NCBI RefSeq assembly: GCF_053078305.1
Contig: NZ_CP166879.1
Strand: one strand, 5' to 3'
DNA length: 64,000 nucleotides
Position numbers and translations under genes: made by a program. Positions 15,987-33,057 of the stretch are shown piece after piece. Within the stretch, counting starts at the first letter, position 1. Each line of letters starts with the position of its first letter. Under the pieces are notes generated by a model that saw only the letters and a list, made by a program, of their open reading frames with translations, was not told the origin of the DNA and did no database searches.

Positions 15987-16606
15987 ATTTCCTCCACATC
16001 CACTGTCTAAAAATTATGATGGTTTATTCAGGATATTCATTCCTTAAATGTTTCCAGCAAATTAATAGATTAAGCGAATAAATTATCCTTAGCATTCACT
16101 TTCATATCAGCATACTCCTGCTGCACAACAACTCCACTGCATGTGTCAGAAGGTTAGCATCAAATGATAACCTGGTGAAATAGCCTGGAGACATTTAAAA
16201 TATCTACATTAAGTTGTTAGAAATACTTAATGAAAAACAGAAATCTCATTCATTTAATTTATAATTAAATGATATCTCTTCCCGCAGAATGCGGGAATCA
16301 CACAATCAATATTTATTCAATAAAATCTGATGATTTTAACTTGTTAACACTAAAAAACGCGCCCAGCTATCTATTATCCTGACCCGTAAAGGCTAAAACA
16401 ATAAATTCATTATAGTGATAATATTCATGTGATAGTTTGTTTGCGGCGAGAGATAATTCGCTTTTTATCACCGAGCTTGTCCCGATAACCAGGATTAATC
16501 AGCGCAATTTTGATCTTAACCTACCGCAAAACAACCTTGCTTCATGATACAAATGGATTCTCATTATCTGAACAATACGCAGCACGTCTATGACAAAGGG
16601 CGAGTT
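15987..16606. promoter_or_regulatory. AT-rich divergent yjjQ/yjjP regulatory region (probable H-NS-silenced promoters)
   Basis: About 620 bp of strongly AT-rich DNA between divergent genes; yjjQ-bglJ and yjjP are reported H-NS targets. Confidence 0.45.
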
Positions 16607-17377
16607 ATGCAAACTGAGCAACAGCGAGCCGTAACACGGCTTTGTATCCAGTGTGGATTATTTCTTTTGCAACATGGTGCGGAAAGCGCGTTGGTTGATG
16701 AGCTTTCCTCACGACTGGGTCGGGCGCTGGGAATGGACAGCGTAGAAAGTTCTATCTCTTCGAACGCCATAGTGCTGACAACTATTAAAGATGGGCAATG
16801 CCTGACATCGACACGTAAAAATCACGATCGCGGCATTAATATGCATGTGGTGACTGAAGTCCAGCACATTGTGATTCTTGCGGAGCATCATCTGCTGGAT
16901 TACAAAGGCGTAGAGAAACGATTTAGCCAAATTCAGCCATTACGTTACCCAAGATGGCTGGTAGCCTTAATGGTTGGCCTTTCTTGCGCCTGTTTCTGTA
17001 AACTCAATAACGGTGGCTGGGATGGTGCCGTCATCACCTTCTTTGCCAGTACGGCCGCGATGTATATCCGCCAGCTGCTGGCACAACGTCATCTTCATCC
17101 ACAAATCAACTTTTGCCTCACCGCTTTCGCCGCCACCACCATTTCCGGATTGCTTTTGCAACTCCCCACTTTCAGCAATACCCCCACCATTGCGATGGCC
17201 GCCAGCGTTCTGCTGCTGGTTCCGGGCTTTCCGTTGATTAATGCCGTCGCCGATATGTTTAAAGGCCACATCAATACCGGACTGGCACGCTGGGCGATCG
17301 CCAGTCTGCTGACACTGGCTACCTGCGTCGGCGTGGTGATGGCACTGACGATTTGGGGGCTACGCGGATGGGTGTGA
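16607..17377 (+). CDS. yjjP: inner-membrane protein (ThrE/YjjP family)
   Basis: ORF 16544-17377; start at MQTEQQRAV gives 256 aa. Confidence 0.8.
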
Positions 17378-17841
17378 TCGAATTTCTGTTTGCATTGGCG
17401 CAGGATATGATCCTCGCCGCCATTCCAGCGGTCGGCTTTGCGATGGTGTTCAACGTTCCCGTGCGGGCGTTACGCTGGTGTGCGCTGCTTGGCTCGATAG
17501 GTCATGGTTCCCGAATGATCTTGATGACCAGCGGGTTGAATATTGAGTGGTCAACCTTTATGGCTTCTATGCTGGTCGGCACCATTGGTATTCAATGGTC
17601 GCGCTGGTATCTGGCGCATCCGAAAGTGTTTACCGTGGCGGCCGTTATCCCTATGTTCCCGGGCATATCGGCTTATACCGCAATGATTTCGGCGGTAAAA
17701 ATCAGCCAGCTAGGTTACAGCGAACCGTTGATGATTACCCTGTTAACCAACTTTCTTACAGCTTCATCGATTGTTGGTGCGTTATCTATCGGTCTTTCCA
17801 TTCCTGGATTATGGTTGTACCGCAAGCGCCCTCGCGTATAA
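17368..17841 (+). CDS. yjjB: inner-membrane protein (YjjB family)
   Basis: 157 aa from [14 protein letters not shown]; overlaps yjjP stop. Confidence 0.8.
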
Positions 17842-17948
17842 AATTGCCTCGCTTAAAGCACGCGGATGAGAGACAGCCTCCTCTCCTCCGTGTGTTACTA
17901 TAAAAGTTATCTCCCTTCTCGTTCATCGTTCCATATTTGAGAAACAGT

Positions 17949-18488
17949 ATGTCTTCCAGAGTTTTGACCCCGGACGTCGTTGGTATTGACGCCCTGGTAC
18001 ACGATCACCAAACCGTTCTGGCAAAAGCTGAAGGCGGTGTGGTTGCCGTATTTGCTAACAATGCCCCGGCGTTTTATGCCGTCACGCCTGCACGCCTGGC
18101 TGAACTGCTGGCGCTGGAAGAAAAGCTGGCGCGTCCGGGAAGCGATGTCGCTCTGGACGATCAACTCTATCAGGAACCGCAAGCCGCTCCCGTTGCTGTA
18201 CCCATGGGGAAATTCGCCATGTATCCGGACTGGCAACCCGATGCCGATTTTATCCGCCTGGCGGCGCTATGGGGCGTGGCGCTAAGAGAGCCGGTAACCA
18301 CCGAAGAACTGGCCTCATTCATTGCCTACTGGCAGGCGGAAGGTAAAGTCTTTCACCATGTGCAGTGGCAACAAAAACTGGCGCGCAGCCTGCAAATCGG
18401 TCGTGCCAGCAACGGCGGACTGCCGAAACGAGATGTGAATACGGTCAGTGAACCTGACAGCCAAATTCCACCAGGATTCAGAGGGTAA
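17949..18488 (+). CDS. dnaT: primosomal protein DnaT
   Basis: 179 aa from [16 protein letters not shown]. Confidence 0.9.
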
Positions 18489-18490
18489 CG

Positions 18491-19228
18491 ATGAAAAACG
18501 TTGGCGACCTGATGCAACGCCTGCAAAAAATGATGCCTGCCCATATCAAACCTGCATTCAAAACGGGTGAAGAGCTACTGGCCTGGCAGAAAGAACAAGG
18601 GGCGATCCGCTCCGCCGCTCTCGAACGTGAAAATCGGGCGATGAAAATGCAGCGCACCTTTAACCGCTCCGGTATTCGTCCACTGCATCAGAACTGCTCC
18701 TTTGAGAACTATCGCGTTGAGTGTGAAGGGCAGATGAATGCGTTAAGCAAAGCGCGCCAGTATGTCGAAGAGTTTGACGGCAACATCGCCAGCTTCATCT
18801 TTTCTGGTAAGCCAGGAACCGGCAAAAACCATCTGGCGGCGGCAATCTGCAACGAGCTGCTGCTACGCGGTAAATCCGTATTGATCATCACCGTGGCCGA
18901 TATTATGTCGGCGATGAAAGATACCTTCAGGAATAGCGGTACCAGCGAAGAACAACTGCTTAACGATCTGAGCAACGTTGATCTGCTGGTGATCGATGAG
19001 ATCGGCGTGCAGACCGAATCGAAATACGAAAAAGTGATCATCAACCAGATCGTCGATCGCCGCTCTTCTTCCAAACGCCCAACCGGGATGCTGACCAACA
19101 GTAATATGGAAGAGATGACCAAGTTGCTGGGCGAACGCGTGATGGACCGTATGCGCCTGGGTAACAGTTTGTGGGTGATCTTCAACTGGGATAGCTACCG
19201 TAGCCGTGTAACAGGTAAAGAGTATTAA
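18491..19228 (+). CDS. dnaC: helicase loader DnaC (AAA+)
   Basis: 245-aa ORF with Walker A GKPGTGKNHLA; 3 bp after dnaT. Confidence 0.95.
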   Translation: MKNVGDLMQRLQKMMPAHIKPAFKTGEELLAWQKEQGAIRSAALERENRAMKMQRTFNRSGIRPLHQNCSFENYRVECEGQMNALSKARQYVEEFDGNIASFIFSGKPGTGKNHLAAAICNELLLRGKSVLIITVADIMSAMKDTFRNSGTSEEQLLNDLSNVDLLVIDEIGVQTESKYEKVIINQIVDRRSSSKRPTGMLTNSNMEEMTKLLGERVMDRMRLGNSLWVIFNWDSYRSRVTGKEY

Positions 19229-19273
19229 TCCCCGTTTCTGGCGGTATACTGCGACACAATTCCACCTTGAGTA

Positions 19274-19771
19274 ATGATGATGAAAACTGTTAAACATCTT
19301 CTGTGCTGTGCCATTGCCGCCAGCGCATTAATTTCCACCGGGGTGCATGCTGCGTCCTGGAAAGATGCGCTCTCCAGCGCCGCCAGCGAACTTGGCAACC
19401 AAAACAGCACGACACAGGAAGGCGGTTGGTCGCTCGCGTCATTAACTAACTTGCTTAGCAGCGGGAACCAGGCCTTAAGCGCAGATAACATGAACAATGC
19501 CGCAGGCATTCTGCAATACTGCGCGAAGCAAAAGCTGGCGTCGGTAACCGATGCCGAAAACATCAAGAATCAGGTGCTGGAAAAGCTGGGCCTGAACAGT
19601 GAAGAGCAAAAAGAAGACACCAACTATCTGGACGGTATTCAGGGTTTGCTGAAAACCAAAGATGGTCAGCAACTCAATCTGGATAACATCGGAACGACTC
19701 CGCTGGCAGAAAAGGTTAAAACCAAAGCCTGCGATCTGGTGTTAAAGCAGGGGCTGAACTTCATTTCCTGA
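19274..19771 (+). CDS. yjjA: secreted protein of unknown function (DUF2501)
   Basis: 165-aa ORF with signal peptide. Confidence 0.8.
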   Translation: MMMKTVKHLLCCAIAASALISTGVHAASWKDALSSAASELGNQNSTTQEGGWSLASLTNLLSSGNQALSADNMNNAAGILQYCAKQKLASVTDAENIKNQVLEKLGLNSEEQKEDTNYLDGIQGLLKTKDGQQLNLDNIGTTPLAEKVKTKACDLVLKQGLNFIS

Positions 19772-20024
19772 ACCGCGAAACGCCGCGTTTTAGCTGTTAC
19801 CCGGCTGACGCGGCTCTCTCCTGCCCTTTTCCCTGCTCCTGGACAGTTTTCCCCCTGTTACACGGGAAGCGACCGCGATCAAAAAAGTCTGTTTATAAAC
19901 TAATTCCTAACAACATCGCATTTTTTTGACACTAGAATTGCAGCAATATGGCGACGCCATTACATTGTGCTTCTCAAAAAGCTTAAACGTTGGCTAAACG
20001 GCCCGGTTTAGTGAGGATCGCCCG

Positions 20025-22316
20025 TTGTCAGAACTACTCTCTTTCGCCCTTTTTCTCGCCTCTGTGCTGATTTACGCATGGAAAGCGGGACGTAACACCT
20101 GGTGGTTTGCAGCCACGTTAACGGTGCTGGGGCTATTTGTCGTTTTAAATATCACCCTGTTTGCCAGCGACTATTTTACTGGCGATGGTATTAACGACGC
20201 GGTTCTCTATACCTTAACCAACAGCCTGACCGGTGCTGGCGTCAGCAAATACATTTTGCCGGGTATCGGCATTGTGCTGGGGCTGACGGCGGTGTTCGGT
20301 GCGCTGGGCTGGATCCTGCGCCGTCGTCGCCATCATCCGCACCATTTTGGTTACAGCCTGCTGGCGCTCTTACTGGCGCTGGGTTCGGTGGACGCCAGCC
20401 CGGCATTTCGTCAGATAACGGAACTGGTGAAATCCCAGTCACGCGATGGCGACCCGGACTTTGCGGCTTATTATAAAGAGCCGTCGAAAACTATCCCTGA
20501 CCCGAAACTCAACCTGGTTTATATCTACGGCGAAAGTCTCGAGCGGACCTATTTTGATAACGAAGCTTTCCCGGATCTCACGCCTGAACTGGGCGCGTTG
20601 AAAAATGAAGGCCTGGATTTCAGCCACACGCAGCAGCTGCCAGGAACGGATTACACGATTGCGGGCATGGTGGCTTCTCAGTGCGGCATACCGCTGTTTG
20701 CCCCCTTTGAAGGCAACGCCTCCGCTTCTGTTTCCAGCTTCTTCCCGCAGAACATCTGTCTGGGCGATATCCTGAAAAACTCGGGTTATCAGAACTATTT
20801 CGTGCAGGGCGCGAATCTGCGTTTTGCCGGTAAAGATGTGTTCCTGAAGTCGCATGGCTTCGACCACTTATACGGCTCAGAAGAGCTGAAAAGCGTGGTA
20901 GCCGACCCGCACTATCGCAACGACTGGGGATTCTACGACGATACCGTTCTCGATGAAGCGTGGAAAAAGTTTGAAGAGCTTTCCCGTTCTGGTCAGCGAT
21001 TCTCACTGTTTACCCTGACAGTCGATACCCATCACCCGGATGGTTTTATCTCGCGCACCTGTAACCGCAAAAAATATGATTTTGACGGTAAGCCGAATCA
21101 GTCATTCAGCGCGGTAAGTTGCAGCCAGGAGAACATCGCGACGTTTATCAACAAAATCAAAGCGTCACCGTGGTTTAAAGATACTGTCATCGTCGTCTCT
21201 TCTGACCATTTAGCGATGAACAACACGGCGTGGAAATACCTCAATAAGCAGGATCGCAATAACCTGTTTTTTGTCATTCGTGGCGACAAGCCGCAGCAAG
21301 AGACGCTGGCAGTGAAGCGTAACACGATGGATAACGGCGCGACGGTGCTGGACATTCTCGGTGGCGATAACTATCTCGGACTTGGTCGTAGCAGTTTATC
21401 CGGGCAGTCGATGTCGGAAATCTTCCTCAATATCAAAGAGAAAACATTGGCGTGGAAGCCAGATATCATCCGCCTGTGGAAATTCCCTAAAGAGATGAAA
21501 GAGTTCACCATCGACCAGCAGAAAAACATGATTGCCTTCTCGGGTAGCCATTTCCGTTTGCCGCTGCTGTTGCGGGTTTCAGACAAACGCGTGGAACCGC
21601 TGCCGGAAAGCGAATACTCAGCACCGCTGCGTTTCCAGCTGGCCGATTTCGCTCCACGCGACAATTTCGTCTGGGTTGACCGTTGCTACAAGATGGCACA
21701 ACTCTGGGCTCCGGAACTGGCACTTTCCACCGACTGGTGTGTCTCGCAGGGGCAACTTGGCGGTCAGCAAATTGTTCAGCATGTTGACAAAACAACATGG
21801 AAGAGCAAGACGGCATTTAAAGATACGGTCATCGACATGGCGCGTTACAAAGGCAATGTCGATACGCTGAAGATTGTTGATAACGATATTCGCTACAAAG
21901 CCGACAGTTTCATCTTTAACGTCGCCGGTGCGCCAGAAGAGGTGAAACAGTTTAGCGGGATTTCCCGTCCGGAGTCGTGGGGCCGCTGGTCCAACGCGCA
22001 GCTGGGCGATGAAGTAAAAATCGAGTACAAGCATCCGCTGCCGAAGAAATTTGACCTGGTGATTACCGCCAAAGCATACGGCAATAACGCCAGCCGTCCT
22101 ATTCCGGTACGCGTAGGCAATGAAGAACAAACTCTTGTGCTGGGCAATGAAGTGACCACCACCACACTGCATTTCGATAACCCAACCGATGCCGACACAC
22201 TGGTAATTGTGCCGCCGGAACCTGTCTCAACCAACGAAGGGAATATCCTCGGACACTCGCCGCGTAAGCTCGGGATCGGCATGGTAGAAATTAAAGTGGT
22301 AGAACGTGAAGGGTAA
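20025..22316 (+). CDS. opgB: phosphoglycerol transferase I (sulfatase family)
   Basis: 763-aa ORF with N-terminal TM helices and sulfatase domain. Confidence 0.9.
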
Positions 22317-22453
22317 TTCCTGACTGATGTGTAGGTCGCATAAGGTGCGACCTACACGCCTTCTACGGCTTACAACACATTATTAAGAAACAAAAAAAAC
22401 AGCGCCCAACACTTCCCCGGACGCTGCATGGCAACTTTAATAATCTCGCCTTA

Positions 22454-23476
22454 TCAGAAAGTAATTACGCCTTTAATTAACTCACGATTGTTAATCACAT
22501 CGCGCTCGTAGGTTTCTGCCAGCGTGGCGAACGGGTAGCGATGGGTTAACATCATGTCGGCAGTGATTTTTCCTTCCGCCATCAGTCGACCGACTTTAGC
22601 GAAATCTTCCGGCGTGGCGTTGCGGCTGCCCATCATCGTCGTTTCTTTTTTATGGAATTCAGGATCGGAGAACTGCAACTCTCCTTTAAACAGGCCGACA
22701 AATACCACCGTGCCGCCGTGACGAATCAGATTCACGGTGTTATTCATCGCATGTTGATTGCCTGTCGCGTCGATCACTTTCTGCGCCAGCGAACCACCAA
22801 ACTGCGCCCGCAGCTGCGCGTCAAAATCTTCGGCTGACGGGTCCAGCACGGGCAACTCCAGACGCGTTGCCACATGTTCACGGCGCGCCGGACTGGTATC
22901 CGCCACCACCACCTGTGCGCCATCGGCTTTAGCGATTGCCGCCGCGCCCAGACCGATTGGCCCCGCCCCGACCACCAGCACCTGCTCGCCGGGAGCAATG
23001 GCTGCGCGACGCACCGCATGAGCGCTAATAGCGAAAGGTTCAATCAATGCGGCCGCCTGCGGGTCAATACCGTCTGCGGGCAAAATGTTCGCCACCGGCA
23101 CGCTCAAATACTCACTAAAACCGCCATCCTGATGCACGCCAATGACTGAAATTTTTTCACAGCAATTGGTACGCCCGCTTTTACACGCCGGGCATTGCTG
23201 ACAGGCAACATAAGGGATCACAGCAACTTGCTGACCATTTTTAAGATCAGCAATATTTTTACCCAGCCCAACAATCTCCCCACATATTTCATGGCCTAAA
23301 ACCCGTGGATAACTAAAAAATGGTTGATTACCACCCCAGGCATGAATATCGGTACCGCAAATCCCGACAGACTTAATTTTTATTAATGCTTCATTGTCAC
23401 CCGGAATAGGTATCTCACGTTGTTTCCAGACTAATGCTTTCGGCTGCTGGCAAATTAAAACATTCATCGTAGACAT
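22454..23476 (-). CDS. lgoD: L-galactonate 5-dehydrogenase (zinc-type alcohol dehydrogenase)
   Basis: 340 aa from MSTMNVLICQQP; GHE..G zinc motif and GAGPIG NAD fold. Confidence 0.9.
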   Translation of the reverse strand: MSTMNVLICQQPKALVWKQREIPIPGDNEALIKIKSVGICGTDIHAWGGNQPFFSYPRVLGHEICGEIVGLGKNIADLKNGQQVAVIPYVACQQCPACKSGRTNCCEKISVIGVHQDGGFSEYLSVPVANILPADGIDPQAAALIEPFAISAHAVRRAAIAPGEQVLVVGAGPIGLGAAAIAKADGAQVVVADTSPARREHVATRLELPVLDPSAEDFDAQLRAQFGGSLAQKVIDATGNQHAMNNTVNLIRHGGTVVFVGLFKGELQFSDPEFHKKETTMMGSRNATPEDFAKVGRLMAEGKITADMMLTHRYPFATLAETYERDVINNRELIKGVITF

Positions 23477-23614
23477 GATTCGGCTCTCCATTTTTTGTTG
23501 CCTTAGATATCAATGAAAATGAAAAATGGCAGCGGAACGGAAAATCTGTTTTGTGAAAACACACGCATAAAAATGTTTTAAATCGGGTTTTAATGGACTC
23601 ACAAGGAGGAAAAT

Positions 23615-24529
23615 ATGAGTCGTTCACAAAATTTACGCCACAATGTGATTAACCAGGTCATTGATGATATGGCGCGGGGTCATATCCCTTCCCCACTTCC
23701 ATCGCAAAGTGCGCTGGCGGAAATGTACAACATCAGCCGCACTACAGTGCGTCATATTCTCAGCCACTTACGCGAATGCGGCGTCTTAACGCAGGTTGGA
23801 AACGACTATGTTATTGCGCGTAAACCTGACCATGATGACGGTTTCGCCTGTACTACCGCTTCAATGAGTGAACAAAACAAAGTGTTTGAGCAGGCTTTTT
23901 TCACGATGATAAACCAGCGTCAGTTACGCCCTGGGGAAACTTTTTCTGAACTGCAACTGGCTCGGGCCGCGGGTGTCAGCCCGGTAGTTGTAAGAGAATA
24001 TCTTTTAAAATTCGGCCGTTATAATCTTATTCAAAGCGAAAAGCGCGGCCAGTGGAGCATGAAGCAATTCGATCAATCCTACGCTGAGCAGCTGTTTGAG
24101 CTACGCGAAATGCTCGAAACACATTCACTTCAGCACTTTCTCAACCTGCCTGATCATGATCCCCGCTGGCTGCAGGCGAAAACCATGCTAGAACGTCATC
24201 GGCTACTGCGTGACAACATCGGCAATAGCTTTCGCATGTTCTCGCAACTTGACAGAGATTTTCACTCCTTACTGCTTTCAGCTGCCGACAATATCTTTTT
24301 TGATCAATCGCTTGAGATCATCTCAGTCATCTTTCATTTTCACTATCAATGGGACGAAAGCGATCTTAAACAGCGCAATATCATTGCCGTCGATGAGCAT
24401 ATGACCATTCTCAGCGCTCTGATTTGCCGCAGTGACCTTGATGCCACCCTTGCGCTCCGTAACCATTTGAATTCAGCGAAACAATCAATGATTCGATCCA
24501 TTAATGAGAACACGCGTTATGCTCATTAA
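23615..24529 (+). CDS. lgoR: GntR-family transcriptional regulator of L-galactonate catabolism
   Basis: 304-aa ORF with N-terminal GntR HTH. Confidence 0.85.
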   Translation: MSRSQNLRHNVINQVIDDMARGHIPSPLPSQSALAEMYNISRTTVRHILSHLRECGVLTQVGNDYVIARKPDHDDGFACTTASMSEQNKVFEQAFFTMINQRQLRPGETFSELQLARAAGVSPVVVREYLLKFGRYNLIQSEKRGQWSMKQFDQSYAEQLFELREMLETHSLQHFLNLPDHDPRWLQAKTMLERHRLLRDNIGNSFRMFSQLDRDFHSLLLSAADNIFFDQSLEIISVIFHFHYQWDESDLKQRNIIAVDEHMTILSALICRSDLDATLALRNHLNSAKQSMIRSINENTRYAH

Positions 24530-24743
24530 GTACGGATTAAAAACAGCAAACTATTAGCGGGTGCACGGTTTTATCAAAAGATAAATACCGGGAAATTCCC
24601 GCTTACCTATGCTCACAATCAGTCGACTAAAAATGTTTTTGTGAGCGGTAGTAAAGTCCTAAAACTTTAACCTGCCGTTAATGTCAACCTTGCGTAATGC
24701 ACAATTACGTAAACAATTAAAATTATAAATACAGGAGTCCGGC

Positions 24744-26105
24744 GTGGAAAAAGAAAATATCACCCTCGATCCGCGTTCTTCATTTACTCCATCTTCGTCG
24801 GCAGATATTCCCGTGCCACCAGATGGATTAGTTCAACGCAGTACCCGAATTAAACGCATTCAAACCACCGCCATGTTGTTATTATTTTTTGCGGCGGTAA
24901 TCAATTATCTCGACCGCAGTTCGCTGTCGGTAGCAAATTTGACGATTCGTGAAGAATTGGGCTTAAGTGCCACCGAAATCGGCGCTTTGCTCTCCGTGTT
25001 TTCACTCGCTTACGGCATTGCGCAACTTCCTTGCGGCCCACTATTGGATCGTAAAGGCCCACGCCTGATGCTGGGACTGGGGATGTTCTTCTGGTCACTG
25101 TTCCAGGCCATGTCTGGCATGGTGCACAGCTTTACGCAGTTCGTGTTGGTGCGTATCGGTATGGGGATTGGTGAAGCGCCGATGAACCCATGCGGTGTAA
25201 AAGTCATTAACGACTGGTTCAACATCAAAGAGCGCGGACGCCCGATGGGCTTCTTCAACGCAGCTTCTACCATTGGCGTTGCCGTAAGCCCACCGATTCT
25301 GGCGGCGATGATGCTGGTGATGGGCTGGCGCGGGATGTTTATTACCATTGGTGTACTGGGGATTTTTCTCGCCATCGGCTGGTATATGCTCTATCGCAAC
25401 CGCGAGCACGTAGAACTGACTGCCGTTGAACAAACTTATCTCAATGCAGGTAGCGTCAATGCCCGCCGAGATCCGCTCAGTTTTGCCGAATGGCGCAGCC
25501 TGTTCCGTAACCGCACAATGTGGGGAATGATGCTCGGATTCAGTGGCATCAACTACACTGCGTGGCTGTATCTGGCCTGGCTTCCTGGTTACCTGCAAAC
25601 AGCCTATAACCTGGATTTAAAAAGCACAGGGTTGATGGCGGCTATCCCTTTCCTGTTTGGGGCTGCCGGGATGCTGGTCAACGGTTACGTTACTGACTGG
25701 CTGGTCAAAGGGGGAATGGCTCCGATTAAAAGCCGTAAGATCTGCATTATTGCCGGGATGTTCTGTTCTGCCGCCTTTACGCTGATAGTACCACAAGCGA
25801 CAACATCCATGATGGCGGTTCTGCTGATTGGCATGGCACTGTTCTGTATTCACTTTGCCGGAACATCCTGCTGGGGCTTGATCCACGTCGCAGTTGCTTC
25901 TCGCATGACTGCGTCGGTGGGCAGTATCCAGAACTTTGCCAGCTTCATCTGCGCCTCTTTCGCGCCGATCATTACTGGTTTTATTGTTGATACAACCCAC
26001 TCATTCCGTCTGGCACTAATCATTTGCGGTTGCGTCACCGCAGCGGGAGCACTGGCGTACATCTTCCTGGTTCGTCAGCCGATCAACGACCCGCGTAAAG
26101 ATTAA
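24744..26105 (+). CDS. lgoT: MFS L-galactonate/H+ symporter
   Basis: 453-aa multi-TM MFS ORF. Confidence 0.85.
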   Translation: MEKENITLDPRSSFTPSSSADIPVPPDGLVQRSTRIKRIQTTAMLLLFFAAVINYLDRSSLSVANLTIREELGLSATEIGALLSVFSLAYGIAQLPCGPLLDRKGPRLMLGLGMFFWSLFQAMSGMVHSFTQFVLVRIGMGIGEAPMNPCGVKVINDWFNIKERGRPMGFFNAASTIGVAVSPPILAAMMLVMGWRGMFITIGVLGIFLAIGWYMLYRNREHVELTAVEQTYLNAGSVNARRDPLSFAEWRSLFRNRTMWGMMLGFSGINYTAWLYLAWLPGYLQTAYNLDLKSTGLMAAIPFLFGAAGMLVNGYVTDWLVKGGMAPIKSRKICIIAGMFCSAAFTLIVPQATTSMMAVLLIGMALFCIHFAGTSCWGLIHVAVASRMTASVGSIQNFASFICASFAPIITGFIVDTTHSFRLALIICGCVTAAGALAYIFLVRQPINDPRKD

Positions 26106-26112
26106 ACTCCCT

Positions 26113-26147
26113 ATGCCCGATAACATTTTGCTTATCGGGCATTTTTA
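26113..26147 (+). terminator. intrinsic terminator between convergent lgoT and tsr
   Basis: Hairpin ATGCCCGATAA...TTATCGGGCAT followed by TTTTAT. Confidence 0.5.
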
Positions 26148-26153
26148 TGGCGA

Positions 26154-27818
26154 TTAAAACGTTTCCCAGTTCTCCCCGCTATCTGCCACTGCCATTTTAC
26201 GCGGCGTAGCTGGCGTCACGGTTTTTACCACAGCCGATGTTTCACGCTGCTGTTGCTGCTGTTGCTGAATCCGGAACACTGCCACAGCTTCGGTCAGGCG
26301 ACTGGCCTGCTCTTCCAGCGCGGCGGCGGCAGCGGCAGATTCTTCCACCAGCGCGGCGTTCTGTTGAGTTACCCGGTCCATCTCAGCAACCGCTAAGCCA
26401 ACCTGATCGATACCACGGCTCTGCTCATCAGAAGCAGAAGCTATTTCGCCCATAATGTCCGTCACGCGGGTCACAGCACTGACAATCTCCGCCATTGTTT
26501 CCCCGGCGCTTTCGACCAGCGTAGAGCCAACATCCACTTTCCCCACCGAGTCTTCAATCAGGCTTTTAATTTCACGAGCCGCCTGGGCGCTACGCTGGGC
26601 CAGATTACGCACTTCTCCCGCAACCACCGCAAAACCACGTCCTTGCTCACCCGCACGCGCTGCTTCAACCGCCGCGTTCAAAGCCAGAATATTGGTCTGG
26701 AAAGCAATGCCGTCAATTACGCTGATAATATCGGCGATTTTCTGCGAACTGGTGGAGATATCACGCATAGTCTGCACCACGTTATCTACCACTTTGCCGC
26801 CGCGTTGCGCCGTTTCAGAAGCACTTAACGCCAGGTGGCTGGCCTGGCGCGCATTCTCGGCGTTCTGTTTCACCGTTGCGGTCAGTTGCTCCATGCTGGC
26901 TGCCGTCTCTTCCAGCGAAGCGGCCTGTTGCTCGGTGCGCGAAGAGAGATCATTATTGCCGGTAGCGATTTCGCTGGCACCGCTATAGATGGCATTGGCC
27001 CCGTTGCGCACATCACCGACGGTACGCATCAGTTCTCCCTGCATATGGCGCAAACTCTCTGCCAGTTGCCCCATCTCATTAGAGCCATCCACCTCAATCG
27101 GTTTCACCAGATCGCCGCCTGCAATATGACGAATGCTGTCAATCAGGCGATTCATTGGCGCTACCAACGAGGCTTTAATACCGAACCAGACGGCGAAGAT
27201 GACCGCCAGTACGACGATCATCACGCCCAACAGAATCCACATCGCCTGGCTGTAGGAGGCATTGTTATCGCTGACGGCGATATCATAGAGCCGATCGTTT
27301 TGCTCCATGTAAGCCACATACTGCTTCTCGAAACCGTCCTGATATCCCTGGGTCGGCTGATCAAAGAACTCGTTGATTTTGCCTGCACCTAACAGTTGGA
27401 TCAGCTCCGCCAGCGCATTGTGATAAATATCGTAATTACGTTTGATCTCTGCCGCTGCGGCGGTGCTCTGACGCGGGTCACGCGGCAACGCTTCGTAATC
27501 CGCCCAGTTTTTTTCCGCCTGTTTCAGCGAAATACTGGCACTCTGCATCAGCTCAGCAACGGTTGAACCGCTACCAATATTATTCTGATCCATCATGTAG
27601 CGGATACCCGCGCGGTTGAGGGTGTTACGCGTCTGCAACAACGCGACCCAGCTGCCATTCAGCGTGGATTGCTGCTGACGAATGGTTTGTAAAACAGTGA
27701 AATTTTCTTTGTCATTCTTTAAGGCATTAAAGAACAGACCGCCTGATGTCAGTTGTAAAAGGCCAAAAACGGCCAAAACCAGCAGTAAGCTGGTCACGAT
27801 CTTGATACGTTTTAACAT
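26154..27818 (-). CDS. tsr: methyl-accepting chemotaxis protein I (serine chemoreceptor)
   Basis: 554-aa ORF ending NWETF; recognised as Tsr; contains a 7-Gln CAG/CAA tract. Confidence 0.95.
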
Positions 27819-28045
27819 GGTTTCTCTTTCCTGTGGACCGATGCAAGATTTTCGGCCTGAAATGAGAAAACTTTATAGGTAGCGACTTGAAACTGGTTAA
27901 TTTTACCTCACTTTTTTAATTTTTGTTCAAAAATACAATAACCACTTATTGATACATTTTCTGTTCTTATTTTTTTCACACGAATTGTATCTATTTTGAA
28001 CGAAATATTTTATAGAGTGTGGAATTTTAAGAAAGGACATCTGAA

Positions 28046-28588
28046 ATGTTAAACCGTGACTTCGATCATCTCTCAACGCTATTACATCTCTTTTTTGAAC
28101 GTGAGGATATTTGCCAAAAGCTTAATATTATTGACCAAAACAATATCACCGGTTGGGAAGTGTGGTTCCAGGTAGAGTTTGCTAATATGCTCTGCTCAAC
28201 AGACCATGAATGGTGGCGTGAACAAGCACTTTCCTGTGATATGCGCAAAAAACCTGAGCGCCCGACACTACGCACAGATTTCTTACTACGTAAAAAAGGC
28301 TGGGCACAAGATAGCTATATCGCGCTTGAAATAAAACAAAACAGAGACGCGACCAGTTGTGTTAAAAATATGATCGCAGACTTAGAAAAAAGCGCAAAAA
28401 TAAAACGTTCCGAACTCGATTTACGCAGTTTCTGGACCTTGGGTATCACCCCTATGATAGACAGGGAAAGGCTGGACTCTCTCATCGATTGCTATTTAGA
28501 TGAGAAATTTTATCTTACTAAATCTCGTAAAAAACACGTTTTACTTAAAGAAATAAATAACACACCATATTGCTATATTGTTATTTAA
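28046..28588 (+). CDS. hypothetical protein (orphan, AT-rich; possible PD-(D/E)xK-like motif)
   Basis: 180-aa ORF with AAAGGA Shine-Dalgarno 7 nt upstream; low GC vs flanks; residues TDFLL...YIALEIK fit D-x18-E-x-K. Confidence 0.5.
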   Translation: MLNRDFDHLSTLLHLFFEREDICQKLNIIDQNNITGWEVWFQVEFANMLCSTDHEWWREQALSCDMRKKPERPTLRTDFLLRKKGWAQDSYIALEIKQNRDATSCVKNMIADLEKSAKIKRSELDLRSFWTLGITPMIDRERLDSLIDCYLDEKFYLTKSRKKHVLLKEINNTPYCYIVI

Positions 28589-28696
28589 TATTTATAGCAT
28601 GAATATAATTTTTAAATGAGTTACACAACCGAGGGCTAAAAATCGCTTCGGTTGTGATCATCATCACATAAATAACCTTCATAAACCTTGCTCAAA

Positions 28697-28745
28697 ACCG
28701 CTCAACCGCAAAACTGACCGCTTACGTCCCTAAAATAACCACTCA
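28697..28745 (+). promoter_or_regulatory. BtsR (YehT) binding site: direct repeats ACC(G/A)CT(C/T)A upstream of btsT
   Basis: ACCGCTCA (28697), ACCGCTTA (28717) and ACCACTCA (28738); last two separated by 13 bp as reported for the yjiY promoter. Confidence 0.5.
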
Positions 28746-28880
28746 GTTATTTACCTTACTTTACGCGCGCGTAACTCTGGCAGCATCACTGCAGGATAGC
28801 GGTCAATTTACCTCCTCAAACGCAACGCAAACCTAGAACGGCTTCGGCCAACTATTAATCAATACATGCCAGGTTTTACT

Positions 28881-31031
28881 ATGGATACGAAAAAACTATT
28901 CAAGCACATACCCTGGGTGATTCTCGGAATCATCGGTGCATTCTGCCTCGCGGTAGTTGCATTACGTCGGGGGGAGCACGTCAGTGCCCTGTGGATCGTG
29001 GTCGCCTCTGTGTCGGTGTATCTGGTGGCGTATCGCTACTACAGTCTGTACATCGCCCAGAAGGTGATGAAACTCGACCCTACGCGCGCGACGCCTGCGG
29101 TTATTAACAACGACGGTCTGAACTATGTTCCGACCAACCGTTACGTGTTGTTTGGTCACCACTTCGCCGCTATCGCCGGTGCCGGTCCGCTGGTTGGTCC
29201 GGTGCTCGCCGCGCAGATGGGCTACCTGCCTGGCACGCTGTGGCTGCTGGCGGGGGTAGTGCTGGCCGGTGCGGTACAGGACTTTATGGTGCTGTTTATC
29301 TCCTCTCGCCGTAACGGCGCATCTCTCGGTGAGATGATCAAAGAAGAGATGGGGCCAGTACCGGGGACTATCGCGCTGTTTGGCTGTTTCTTAATCATGA
29401 TCATCATCCTAGCCGTCCTGGCGCTGATTGTGGTTAAAGCCCTGGCCGAAAGTCCGTGGGGTGTCTTCACCGTTTGCTCAACCGTACCGATTGCGCTGTT
29501 TATGGGTATCTACATGCGCTTTATCCGTCCGGGGCGTGTGGGTGAAGTCTCTGTTATTGGTATCGTGCTGCTGGTTGCCTCTATCTACTTCGGTGGCGTG
29601 ATTGCTCACGATCCGTACTGGGGTCCGGCACTGACCTTTAAAGACACCACCATTACCTTCGCGCTGATTGGCTATGCGTTTGTTTCCGCACTGCTGCCGG
29701 TGTGGCTGATCCTCGCACCGCGCGACTATCTGGCAACCTTCCTGAAAATCGGCGTTATCGTCGGCCTGGCGCTGGGTATCGTGGTGCTGAACCCGGAACT
29801 GAAAATGCCTGCGATGACCCAGTACATTGACGGTACTGGCCCGCTGTGGAAAGGCGCTCTGTTCCCGTTCCTGTTCATCACCATCGCCTGTGGTGCGGTA
29901 TCTGGCTTCCACGCGCTGATCTCTTCCGGTACGACGCCGAAACTGCTGGCTAACGAAACCGACGCGCGTTTCATCGGCTACGGCGCAATGCTGATGGAGT
30001 CCTTCGTGGCGATTATGGCGCTGGTTGCAGCGTCCATCATCGAACCGGGTCTTTACTTCGCGATGAACACTCCGCCTGCTGGCCTTGGCATCACCATGCC
30101 TAACCTGCATGAAATGGGTGGCGAGAACGCGCCGATCATCATGGCGCAGCTGAAAGACGTTACCGCACACGCGGCAGCGACCGTCAGCTCCTGGGGCTTC
30201 GTGATTTCGCCAGAGCAGATCCTGCAAACCGCGAAAGACATTGGTGAGCCTTCTGTCCTGAACCGTGCAGGTGGTGCGCCGACGCTGGCGGTAGGTATCG
30301 CTCATGTGTTCCACAAAGTGCTACCGATGGCTGACATGGGCTTCTGGTATCACTTCGGTATTCTGTTCGAAGCCCTGTTCATCCTGACCGCGCTGGATGC
30401 GGGTACCCGTTCTGGCCGCTTTATGCTGCAAGATCTGCTGGGTAACTTCATCCCGTTCCTGAAAAAAACCGACTCTCTGGTTGCCGGTATCATCGGTACT
30501 GCGGGCTGTGTGGGTCTGTGGGGCTACCTGCTGTATCAGGGCGTGGTCGATCCGCTGGGCGGCGTTAAGAGCCTGTGGCCGCTGTTCGGTATCTCCAACC
30601 AGATGCTGGCAGCCGTAGCGCTGGTACTGGGCACCGTTGTGCTGATTAAGATGAAGCGCACCCAATACATCTGGGTAACTGTTGTTCCGGCTGTATGGCT
30701 GCTTATCTGCACCACCTGGGCGCTGGGCCTGAAACTGTTCAGCACCAACCCGCAGATGGAAGGCTTCTTCTACATGGCAAGCCAGTACAAAGAGAAGATT
30801 GCTAACGGTACTGACCTGACGGCGCAGCAGATTGCCAACATGAACCACATCGTTGTGAACAACTACACCAACGCGGGCCTGAGTATTCTGTTCCTGATTG
30901 TGGTGTACAGCATCATCTTCTACGGTTTCAAAACCTGGCTTGCGGTGCGTAACAGCGACAAACGTACTGACAAAGAAACACCGTACGTTCCAATCCCGGA
31001 AGGCGGCGTGAAGATCTCTTCGCACCACTAA
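28881..31031 (+). CDS. btsT: CstA-family pyruvate/H+ symporter
   Basis: 716 aa from MDTKKLFKHIPWVILG; multi-TM CstA-like. Confidence 0.9.
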   Translation: MDTKKLFKHIPWVILGIIGAFCLAVVALRRGEHVSALWIVVASVSVYLVAYRYYSLYIAQKVMKLDPTRATPAVINNDGLNYVPTNRYVLFGHHFAAIAGAGPLVGPVLAAQMGYLPGTLWLLAGVVLAGAVQDFMVLFISSRRNGASLGEMIKEEMGPVPGTIALFGCFLIMIIILAVLALIVVKALAESPWGVFTVCSTVPIALFMGIYMRFIRPGRVGEVSVIGIVLLVASIYFGGVIAHDPYWGPALTFKDTTITFALIGYAFVSALLPVWLILAPRDYLATFLKIGVIVGLALGIVVLNPELKMPAMTQYIDGTGPLWKGALFPFLFITIACGAVSGFHALISSGTTPKLLANETDARFIGYGAMLMESFVAIMALVAASIIEPGLYFAMNTPPAGLGITMPNLHEMGGENAPIIMAQLKDVTAHAAATVSSWGFVISPEQILQTAKDIGEPSVLNRAGGAPTLAVGIAHVFHKVLPMADMGFWYHFGILFEALFILTALDAGTRSGRFMLQDLLGNFIPFLKKTDSLVAGIIGTAGCVGLWGYLLYQGVVDPLGGVKSLWPLFGISNQMLAAVALVLGTVVLIKMKRTQYIWVTVVPAVWLLICTTWALGLKLFSTNPQMEGFFYMASQYKEKIANGTDLTAQQIANMNHIVVNNYTNAGLSILFLIVVYSIIFYGFKTWLAVRNSDKRTDKETPYVPIPEGGVKISSHH

Positions 31032-31040
31032 CCGTGTTTA

Positions 31041-31067
31041 GCCCCGCTTCGGCGGGGCTTTGTTCTT
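31041..31067 (+). terminator. intrinsic terminator after btsT
   Basis: GCCCCGCTTCGGCGGGGC hairpin followed by TTTGTTCTT. Confidence 0.6.
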
Positions 31068-31080
31068 ATCAGAGTGAACT

Positions 31081-31284
31081 ATGTTTGGTAACTTAGGACA
31101 GGCAAAAAAATATCTCGGCCAGGCGGCGAAGATGTTGATTGGTATTCCAGACTACGACAACTACGTCGAGCATATGAAGACCAACCATCCCGACAAGCCG
31201 TACATGAGCTATGAAGAATTCTTCCGCGAACGCCAGAACGCGCGCTACGGCGGCGATGGTAAAGGCGGTATGCGCTGTTGTTAA
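31081..31284 (+). CDS. yjiX: small protein DUF466 (CstA-associated)
   Basis: 67-aa ORF directly downstream of btsT. Confidence 0.85.
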
Positions 31285-31294
31285 TGGAGAGAGC

Positions 31295-32251
31295 ATGAAC
31301 CCGATTGCAGTAACCCTACTCACCGGTTTTTTAGGCGCGGGAAAAACCACCCTGCTGCGCCATATTCTTAACGAACAACACGGCTACAAGATTGCCGTGA
31401 TTGAAAACGAATTCGGCGAAGTCTCCGTTGATGATCAATTGATTGGCGACCGCGCCACGCAGATCAAAACGCTGACCAACGGCTGCATCTGCTGTTCGCG
31501 CTCCAACGAGCTGGAGGACGCGCTACTCGACCTGCTGGATAATCTCGACAAGGGCAATATTCAGTTCGATCGTCTGGTCATTGAATGCACCGGCATGGCC
31601 GATCCCGGCCCGATTATTCAGACCTTTTTCTCCCATGAGATTTTATGCCAGCGTTACCTGCTGGACGGCGTGATTGCGCTGGTGGATGCGGTACATGCCG
31701 ATGAGCAGATGAACCAGTTCACCATCGCCCAGTCCCAGGTTGGCTACGCCGACCGTATTCTGCTGACCAAAACCGACGTCGCAGGCGAAGCAGAAAAACT
31801 GCGCGAACGCCTGGCGCGCATCAACGCCCGTGCACCGGTCTACACCGTTACCCACGGCGACATCGACCTGGGCCTGCTGTTCAACACCAACGGTTTTATG
31901 CTGGAAGAAAACGTCGTCAGCACCAAACCGCGTTTCCACTTTATCGCGGATAAACAAAACGATATTTCGTCGATTGTGGTAGAACTGGATTACCCGGTAG
32001 ATATCAGCGAAGTTTCCCGCGTGATGGAAAACCTGCTGCTGGAATCGGCGGATAAACTGCTGCGTTACAAAGGGATGCTGTGGATTGACGGCGAACCTAA
32101 CCGCCTGCTGTTCCAGGGCGTCCAGCGCCTCTACAGCGCCGACTGGGACCGCCCGTGGGGCGATGAAAAACCGCATAGCACGATGGTGTTTATCGGGATT
32201 CAGTTGCCGGAGGAAGAGATTCGGGCGGCGTTTGCGGGGTTGAGGAAGTAA
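31295..32251 (+). CDS. yjiA: CobW/HypB/UreG-family metal-binding GTPase
   Basis: 318 aa from MNPIAVTLLTGFLGAGKTT (P-loop), CxCC motif. Confidence 0.9.
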   Translation: MNPIAVTLLTGFLGAGKTTLLRHILNEQHGYKIAVIENEFGEVSVDDQLIGDRATQIKTLTNGCICCSRSNELEDALLDLLDNLDKGNIQFDRLVIECTGMADPGPIIQTFFSHEILCQRYLLDGVIALVDAVHADEQMNQFTIAQSQVGYADRILLTKTDVAGEAEKLRERLARINARAPVYTVTHGDIDLGLLFNTNGFMLEENVVSTKPRFHFIADKQNDISSIVVELDYPVDISEVSRVMENLLLESADKLLRYKGMLWIDGEPNRLLFQGVQRLYSADWDRPWGDEKPHSTMVFIGIQLPEEEIRAAFAGLRK

Positions 32252-32284
32252 TTTTGGATGATGGCCGCCATGTGGCGGCCTGAA

Positions 32285-32587
32285 TTATTTTTTGTTCTGA
32301 TCGCGCAGCATCGCTTCACGTAAAATTGCGTTCAGGCGAGTTTGATAGCCTTTACCTGGTCGCTTCAACCATTCCATCACATCAGCATCAATACGCACCG
32401 AAGCCTGAGTTTTCAATGGCCGATAAAACTTACCACGTTCGGCGTTAGACCATTGCTCATCGCTGGAAGGTGGGATATCACTGTAATCAATATCTTCGTC
32501 GGATTTATTCGCCAGCGCCTTCAGTTCGGCCTCATGCTGCACATCGAGTGTAGAGGGTGCCCCTCGTTTATGTTTAACCATGCTCAT
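32285..32587 (-). CDS. BrnA-like antitoxin (DUF4415/CopG-like)
   Basis: About 100 aa from MSMVKHKRG; C-terminal RIDADVMEWLKRPGKGYQTRLNAILREAM; start overlaps the stop of the upstream toxin ORF. Confidence 0.65.
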   Translation of the reverse strand: MSMVKHKRGAPSTLDVQHEAELKALANKSDEDIDYSDIPPSSDEQWSNAERGKFYRPLKTQASVRIDADVMEWLKRPGKGYQTRLNAILREAMLRDQNKK

Positions 32588-32888
32588 AGCGACTCCTCTC
32601 TTTACGATCTGCTTTTCGTGCACTGATGATTCGAATAATTTCATTTCCGCTTTCGAAACGGATGGTATGCGCAACCAGAATAACCACGATACCGTGAACC
32701 AAGCCGATAGTCTGCCAGCGATACTCACCGTTTTCTATGCGATCTTGCTGTGACAAATGTTGTGGATCATCAAACACTAACACCGCATCTTCAAAGCGGA
32801 TGCCATGTTTCACCCGATTACTTTTGGCCTTGTTTGCATCCCATTCAAACTCCATTGGCATAGTTGCCATCCCTAATTGTATATACAA
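32574..32888 (-). CDS. BrnT-like toxin (DUF497, RelE/ParE superfamily ribonuclease)
   Basis: Motif EFEWDANKAKSNRVKHGIRFEDA...RIISARKADRKER typical of BrnT; several in-frame ATG starts (32888 to 32855). Confidence 0.65.
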   Translation of the reverse strand: MYIQLGMATMPMEFEWDANKAKSNRVKHGIRFEDAVLVFDDPQHLSQQDRIENGEYRWQTIGLVHGIVVILVAHTIRFESGNEIIRIISARKADRKERSRYEHG

Positions 32889-33057
32889 AAATGTATCTAC
32901 AATTATTCTGCAATTATAGCGTTGATGTTGGAAATAGCATCACGTTTTGGATAATCAACCATGAAATTGACAATGAGTAAGTTGGACTTGATTCATCCAA
33001 TAGAATTTCTCGCCTGACATGGCACACTAAACACCTCGCTGTCGTTAAGGGATTACC

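Follow-up and report, generated by a model that had tools for sequence, protein, structure and literature searches.

A 9-bp coding repeat of variable length in the tether of the serine chemoreceptor Tsr of Escherichia coli

Is a run of seven consecutive glutamine codons in the C-terminal tether of the serine chemoreceptor Tsr peculiar to one genome, how does its length change, and what would such a change mean for the receptor? The run lies in a 64,000-nucleotide stretch of E. coli DNA, referred to as the window, within an open reading frame of 554 codons plus stop (26154..27818, minus strand) that corresponds to tsr (serine chemoreceptor, MCP-I). Of 5,426 complete E. coli genomes, 5,385 have an annotated tsr with which this frame aligns over 100% of its length, and the PDB Tsr chain 6s1k_E (551 aa) matches query residues 1-554 (E=0). 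The protein ends in a C-terminal xZxxZ pentapeptide, NWETF (residues 550-554; 26157..26171, minus strand), the docking site of CheR and CheB according to the literature (PMC7390727, PMC10561060). As in K-12, the gene is adjoined by lgoR (23615..24529) and lgoT (24744..26105), tsr and lgoT being convergent. Judged by its sequence, the frame is a Tsr orthologue, and serine sensing and kinase control by its product would follow from orthology.

The surroundings of the gene are variable. The best match to the 20 kb at 16000..36000, which include a type I restriction-modification system, is 99.0-99.1% identical (TUM13936, Combat11I9), and none of the 5,426 complete E. coli genomes is very closely related to the source strain. 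E. coli strains differ in the gene that lies downstream of tsr: it is the MFS transporter gene lgoT in the window, K-12, O157, HS and others, and TRAP transporter permeases replace it in BEN2908, LF82, N47, A33, RM14723 and others. The upstream neighbour varies too. The window has a 180-aa open reading frame at 28046..28588 (plus strand), a position at which Combat11I9, O157 and ET350 carry a 543-bp hypothetical gene (WP_000934391.1), and in other E. coli strains hpaR or btsT adjoins tsr.

The first-pass annotation had placed seven consecutive Gln codons at 26247-26267, and the translation bears this out exactly. Residues 518-524 are encoded by CAG CAA CAG CAG CAA CAG CAG (26247..26267, minus strand), that is, by a lead CAG (26265..26267) followed by two CAA CAG CAG units (unit 1, 26256..26264; unit 2, 26247..26255; all on the minus strand). 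Tandem Repeats Finder describes perfect head-to-tail direct repeats, in a period-9 array of 2.4 copies with 100% matches (26246..26267). At 4.4% Gln, about 4e-4 runs of at least seven Gln are expected by chance per proteome of 1.3 million residues, and the seven-Gln run is far above that expectation. Among the 50 long open frames of the window, the only homopolymer runs of five or more residues are this one and a run of six Ala in the same gene. The Ala run (A495-A500; 26320..26338, minus strand) is a GCGGCA x3.2 repeat between E493 and E502, 50 nt from the Gln repeat; it is invariant in 40 orthologues and of constant length in 24 E. coli tsr genes, so that of these two repeats it is the Gln repeat, and not the Ala run, that varies in length.

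Comparison with K-12 locates the difference precisely. In the Tsr of K-12 (NZ_CP064678, 551 aa), the run is only four Gln long (518-521) and is specified by CAG CAA CAG CAG, with flanks identical to those of the window. Both share the gene, its synteny, the domain organisation, NWETF and the type of linker sequence (PDB 6s1k, 1qu7, 3zx6), and the full-length PDB chain 6s1k_E has the K-12 length of 551 aa; the two tsr genes are 97.6% identical in nucleotides when the 9-nt gap is counted. This gap is one CAACAGCAG unit, wholly inside the Gln tract: K-12 has one unit, four Gln, a tether chain of 30 residues and 551 aa in total, and the window has two units, seven Gln, 33 residues and 554 aa. The tails differ further by A538T and E548G. 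The annotation had set 551 residues for K-12 Tsr against the 554 found here, and the difference is indeed exactly three Gln codons within the tract; K-12 was examined for the same seven-Gln tract and carries four. Its treatment of the single Gln codon as the repeated element does not stand, since the unit that mutates is the 9-bp repeat CAACAGCAG and the only alleles seen have 4, 7, 10 or 13 Gln (4Q, 7Q, 10Q and 13Q).

Within E. coli the tract reads as an in-frame tandem repeat of the form CAG(CAACAGCAG)n with n = 1 to 4. Tract length was surveyed across the 5,426 complete genomes by allele-specific megablast, with queries whose flanks were too short to give other alleles a 28-nt seed or 80% coverage. 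The 7Q allele (n=2) was found in 4,051 genomes and 4Q (n=1) in 1,208. Alleles of 10Q or longer were found in 74, made up of about 71 10Q (n=3) and three 13Q (n=4), in agreement with the 75 partial matches to the 7Q query. The 10Q queries had left flanks of 30-66 nt, the 30-nt flank having seeded only 2,836 genomes and given at least 13. No genome matched a 1Q allele (n=0) in this megablast survey, and no allele beyond 13Q was present among the inspected rows of the 10Q-or-longer matches. Expressed over the 5,333 assigned genomes, 7Q, 4Q, 10Q and 13Q account for about 76%, 23%, 1.3% and 0.06%, figures drawn from genomes that are phylogenetically non-independent and with a 4Q count inflated by laboratory derivatives of K-12 and B (about 4 of 10 spread rows). 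A near-complete tsr is present in 5,385 genomes, of which about 52 fall outside the allele counts; flank SNPs or other lengths could explain these. The window carries the majority allele of the species and the 4Q of K-12 is a minority form; the seven-Gln tract is ordinary natural variation.

The series extends on both sides of the window allele, from 4Q in K-12 through 10Q in N47, HS and LF82 to 13Q in RM14723, A13 and Z1323HEC0355. Total Tsr length reaches 557 aa with three units and 10 Gln (N47) and 560 aa with four (the 13Q strains), and the tether chain measures 30, 33, 36 and 39 residues for 4Q, 7Q, 10Q and 13Q respectively. Sources of 10Q include HS, LF82, NRG857C, O104:H21, and neonatal-meningitis and animal isolates. 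Lengths other than one to four whole units did not occur in the 24 sequenced alleles or in 29 spread rows, nor did single-codon alleles (5, 6, 8 or 9 Q) in these 53 inspected genes, and the frame was intact through to NWETF in all 24 sequenced alleles. A point mutation within the repeat was seen in 2014C-3338 (NZ_CP027452, L139), whose three-unit tract has a CAG-to-CAT change and reads QQQQQQQQHQ; such a mutation would be expected to damp further slippage.

The annotation had described the tract of the window as a three-codon expansion. The size of the difference stands, and its direction is probably the reverse: 7Q is the majority allele, two units are also present in E. whittamii, and a 33-residue chain is the mode of the family. 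The outgroup evidence comes from a degenerate-pattern scan of species-representative genomes, which gave, among the matches listed, 62 Tsr-type C-termini from other Enterobacteriaceae; about half of the matches listed were chance matches outside this family, and E. albertii, E. fergusonii, E. marmotae and S. enterica subsp. enterica were absent from them. Measured from I517 up to but excluding the pentapeptide, the chain has 33 aa in 40 of the 62 orthologues among the matches listed, 32 in 10, 34 in six, 35 in three, 30 in two and 27 in one. Most canonical-start Tsr orthologues have a total length of 553-554 aa. At the site of the tract most of the 62 listed orthologues have QQxQQ(R/K), and in 53 of the 62 the longest Gln run has two residues; the more distant Escherichia, Salmonella and Citrobacter among the matches listed have QQxQQR without the repeat. 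On the other hand, E. whittamii (L082), a sister species, has CAG CAG ACG (CAA CAG CAG)x2 and, after it, a tail like that of E. coli. The frequency of 7Q, the two units of E. whittamii and the 33-residue family mode together make 7Q the probable ancestral state in E. coli. The 4Q of K-12 is then probably a contraction by one unit, rather than the window allele an expansion, a polarity that leans on a single E. whittamii genome and on a homoplastic site.

Within Escherichia, the Q-region and the residues that follow it trade length (L082, L120, L021). E1V33 (L120) reads QQTQQ, R and QHEALP and has a 33-residue chain, as does E. coli 7Q, which reads QQQQQQQ, R and ETSA. The genome labelled E. 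coli SCPM-O-B-8794 (L021) has an E1V33-type tail and may therefore belong to another Escherichia species. A second chemoreceptor locus of Salmonella enterica subsp. diarizonae (L071) has the AVAVFRIQ motif, a 27-residue chain and an SWESF end, and is a paralogue, not Tsr.

Forty orthologues were aligned to place the tract. Their invariant columns are almost continuous up to I517/Q518 and then cease; beyond Q518 only K541, W551, E552 and F554 are invariant, and R540 is conserved in at least 90%. With the exception of K541 and R540, the remaining variable linker (residues 525-549; 26172..26246, minus strand) is not conserved in sequence across genera. The non-conserved linker, from the last conserved helix residue to the pentapeptide, spans 33 aa in the window and 27-35 aa in the 62 listed orthologues. 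By this alignment, the first residue beyond I517 that is not conserved is where the tract starts, at the apparent junction of helix and tether. The Ile517 codon (26268..26270, minus strand) encodes the final residue of the conserved receptor body and is where the literature count of the tether begins: the Parkinson laboratory describes residue 517 as the last conserved residue of Tsr, with a 34-residue C-terminus beyond it (PMC4692393), and a tethered-particle study counts a Tsr tether of 30 aa from I517 (PMC10561060). Counted from I517 to the pentapeptide, the chain of the window Tsr has 33 aa. In DETEC-S586 (NZ_CP116074, L135), the neighbouring R516 is replaced by Leu (CGG to CTG), with only I517 separating it from the tract; R516 is the tethering site as taken by PMC10561060.

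The annotation had assigned the tract to a flexible tether. Its place, directly after I517 and ahead of NWETF, is correct; its flexibility is uncertain, since a low-confidence AlphaFold helix runs through it. In the predicted structures the last helix ends at Q524 in 7Q (tract 518-524) and at residue 533 in 13Q (tract 518-530), and the pLDDT of residues 521-530 rises from 44 to 64. In both of these low-confidence models the tract itself is helical and is followed by coil with a pLDDT below 50; they are monomer models of a dimeric coiled coil, built on a shallow alignment, with mean pLDDT of 59 and 60. The Gln run might then prolong the last receptor helix by about one turn per unit, and so shift the anchor of the tether rather than add slack to it. 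Bartelli and Hazelbauer in 2011 and Li and Hazelbauer in 2006 reportedly provided EPR and truncation evidence for Tar. Peptides of the androgen receptor, which are about 5% helical at Q4 and about 40% at Q8-Q12 (PMC6497633), are in line with a prolonged helix, as is the displacement of the predicted helix end. However, a helix call on poly-Gln from two low-confidence models is weak evidence, and in the chemotaxis literature the receptor is regarded as unstructured beyond about residue 516-517 (PMC10561060, PMC4692393), with reference to EPR evidence for Tar. We consider helix extension possible and hold it only tentatively; it is compatible both with an origin of the alleles by slippage and with selection on tract length.

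What a change of one unit does to the receptor can be approached from work on Tar. According to the literature, the pentapeptide binds CheR and CheB, which act on neighbouring receptors (PMC10561060, PMC7390727), and the expectation of the first-pass annotation that tether length matters for their docking agrees with published Tar chains of 22, 29, 34 and 46 aa, in which the peak of CheR density shifts by 0.128 +/- 0.048 nm per residue (PMC10561060). Each unit adds three residues, which would contribute about 1.1 nm of contour as coil or about 0.45 nm as helix, and should slightly shift the concentration of tethered CheR and CheB relative to the methylation sites. Extrapolation from Tar gives a shift of the CheR density peak of about 0.4 nm per 9-bp unit. 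The corresponding change in local CheR density is about 20-25% per three-residue step, an order-of-magnitude value obtained by crude extrapolation with Tar parameters and a crude normalisation. These figures suggest that the effect of three residues more or less in Tsr would be modest within the range of 30-36 residues. The tight range of 32-34 aa across genera hints at a constraint on length, which sits uneasily with a modest effect.

On a rival reading, tract length would be under selection because the length of the tether sets the kinetics and precision of adaptation in serine and AI-2 taxis, and the mutable repeat would allow lineages to adjust it, with 33 residues as the optimum and 30, 36 and 39 either adaptive or mildly deleterious. 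The chain measures 32-34 aa in 56 of the 62 listed orthologues though its sequence is unconserved, lengths in E. coli cluster strongly at 33 aa (about 76%), E1V33 and E. coli 7Q arrive at the same 33 residues with five Q-region residues plus six and with seven plus four, and CheR positioning is measurably moved by the tether length of Tar (PMC10561060). Yet the published Tar constructs differ by 5-12 residues, against three here, and a peaked distribution would also result from shared ancestry combined with low, length-dependent slippage. Furthermore, the standard for excellent serine chemotaxis is K-12, whose chain has 30 aa, and in the rows inspected the alleles had no obvious link to host or pathotype. 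We therefore regard selection on tract length as rather unlikely. Less likely again is its fullest form, in which the Gln repeat is a selected length adjuster at the junction of helix and tether, 33 residues are under stabilising selection throughout the Enterobacteriaceae and 30, 36 and 39 measurably retune the reach of CheR and CheB, maybe via length-dependent helix extension. If it were true, slippage alleles would alter how fast or how precisely cells adapt to serine and AI-2, and K-12 Tsr, on which most chemotaxis work has been done, would be a slightly atypical, short-tether variant.

To assess how often the length has changed, we compared 24 tsr genes covering all four lengths, with the tract removed (1,644 aligned nt). 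Genes with different tracts can be nearly identical elsewhere: BEN2908 (4Q) and DETEC-S586 (7Q) differ at two sites in the 1,644 nt, O111:H8 (7Q) and HS (10Q) at two, and N47 (10Q) and RM14723 (13Q) at four. In contrast, K-12-type 4Q haplotypes differ from BEN2908, of the same tract length, by at least 28 sites in tsr. Fitch parsimony on a neighbour-joining tree of the 24 genes requires at least nine length changes, a number that is not a rate, the rare alleles having been deliberately over-sampled and recombination within tsr ignored. Sorted by downstream gene, lgoT occurs with 4Q, 7Q and 10Q, and TRAP transporter genes with 4Q, 7Q, 10Q and 13Q. The presence of different lengths on haplotypes only 2-4 nt apart indicates recurrent slippage, and the comparison as a whole indicates recurrent, independent length changes at the tsr repeat. 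Replication slippage between the direct repeats would produce them, with 9-bp units gained or lost whole to give 4, 7, 10 and 13 Gln. The CAA interruptions would hold pure CAG runs to two codons, which we infer to be the reason why steps are of 9 bp and not of 3 bp.

The same alleles could have moved between haplotypes by gene conversion of very short patches. Carried to its end, this would mean that each length arose a single time and was spread by homologous recombination, without recurrent slippage. E. coli does recombine, and the neighbours of tsr are variable both downstream (lgoT or TRAP) and upstream (hpaR, btsT or a hypothetical gene). However, the pairs of unlike length differ at just 2-4 of 1,644 flanking sites across the gene, so that a single origin needs repeated transfer of patches that have the repeat at their centre and measure a few dozen bases, and the differences between alleles are always whole units of a perfect direct repeat. 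We judge this improbable. An artefact of sequencing or assembly in a low-complexity region, for which nothing specific speaks beyond the general possibility of mis-assembled repeats, is effectively excluded, the chance being negligible: the tract is just 21 nt long, its frame is open through NWETF, and the same 21 nt with their flanks recur in 4,051 independently assembled complete genomes. We hold with good confidence that tsr contains a repeat that gains and loses whole units, probably by slippage, that the window has its two-unit majority allele, that the K-12 form is likely a contraction, and that the effect of a unit more or less would be modest.

The gene, the tether and the window allele are all familiar, and roughly three in four complete E. 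coli genomes have a seven-Gln tsr. The observation of the first-pass annotation is thus confirmed and its interpretation partly supported. Our literature search found no paper on polymorphism of the tsr repeat, an absence that is weak evidence; matches for tsr together with tandem repeats were false positives ('TSR' for Typhimurium-specific regions, and an entry for tsr in an expression table). Knowing that the K-12 Tsr tether is three residues shorter than that of the E. coli majority and of most Enterobacteriaceae orthologues should be of practical use to chemotaxis researchers.

Among known systems, the poly-Gln tract of the androgen receptor (PMC6497633) resembles that of Tsr in coming immediately after a hydrophobic helical segment (AVAVFRI in Tsr), and the 4-13 Gln of the Tsr alleles cover the range in which helicity rises steeply in androgen-receptor peptides. 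Unlike it, Tsr is a bacterial membrane receptor with much shorter tracts, a helicity predicted at low confidence and no link to aggregation or transcription. With coding slipped-strand repeats, tsr shares perfect direct repeats, whole-unit alleles and recurrent change on near-identical haplotypes; its array is very short in comparison (1-4 units of 9 bp), keeps the frame and does no on/off switching. A phase-variable contingency locus is ruled out, the unit being 9 bp and the frame intact in 24 of 24 alleles. A further parallel is the pentapeptide tether of Tar and Tsr itself, in which some 30-35 variable, non-conserved residues connect the signalling-domain helix with xWxxF. The window Tsr has such a tether too, and the only conserved feature reported for the linker is its charge pattern (bioRxiv 10.1101/2024.03.07.583918). 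Published changes to the length of this tether are engineered, in Tar, and made in steps of 5-12 residues towards the end that bears the pentapeptide (PMC10561060, PMC7390727, bioRxiv 10.1101/2024.03.07.583918), whereas the change described here is natural, in Tsr, made in steps of three residues, helix-proximal and all Gln. The natural Tsr tethers of 30, 33, 36 and 39 residues are hence a ready allelic series for models of tether length, which have so far relied on engineered Tar constructs.
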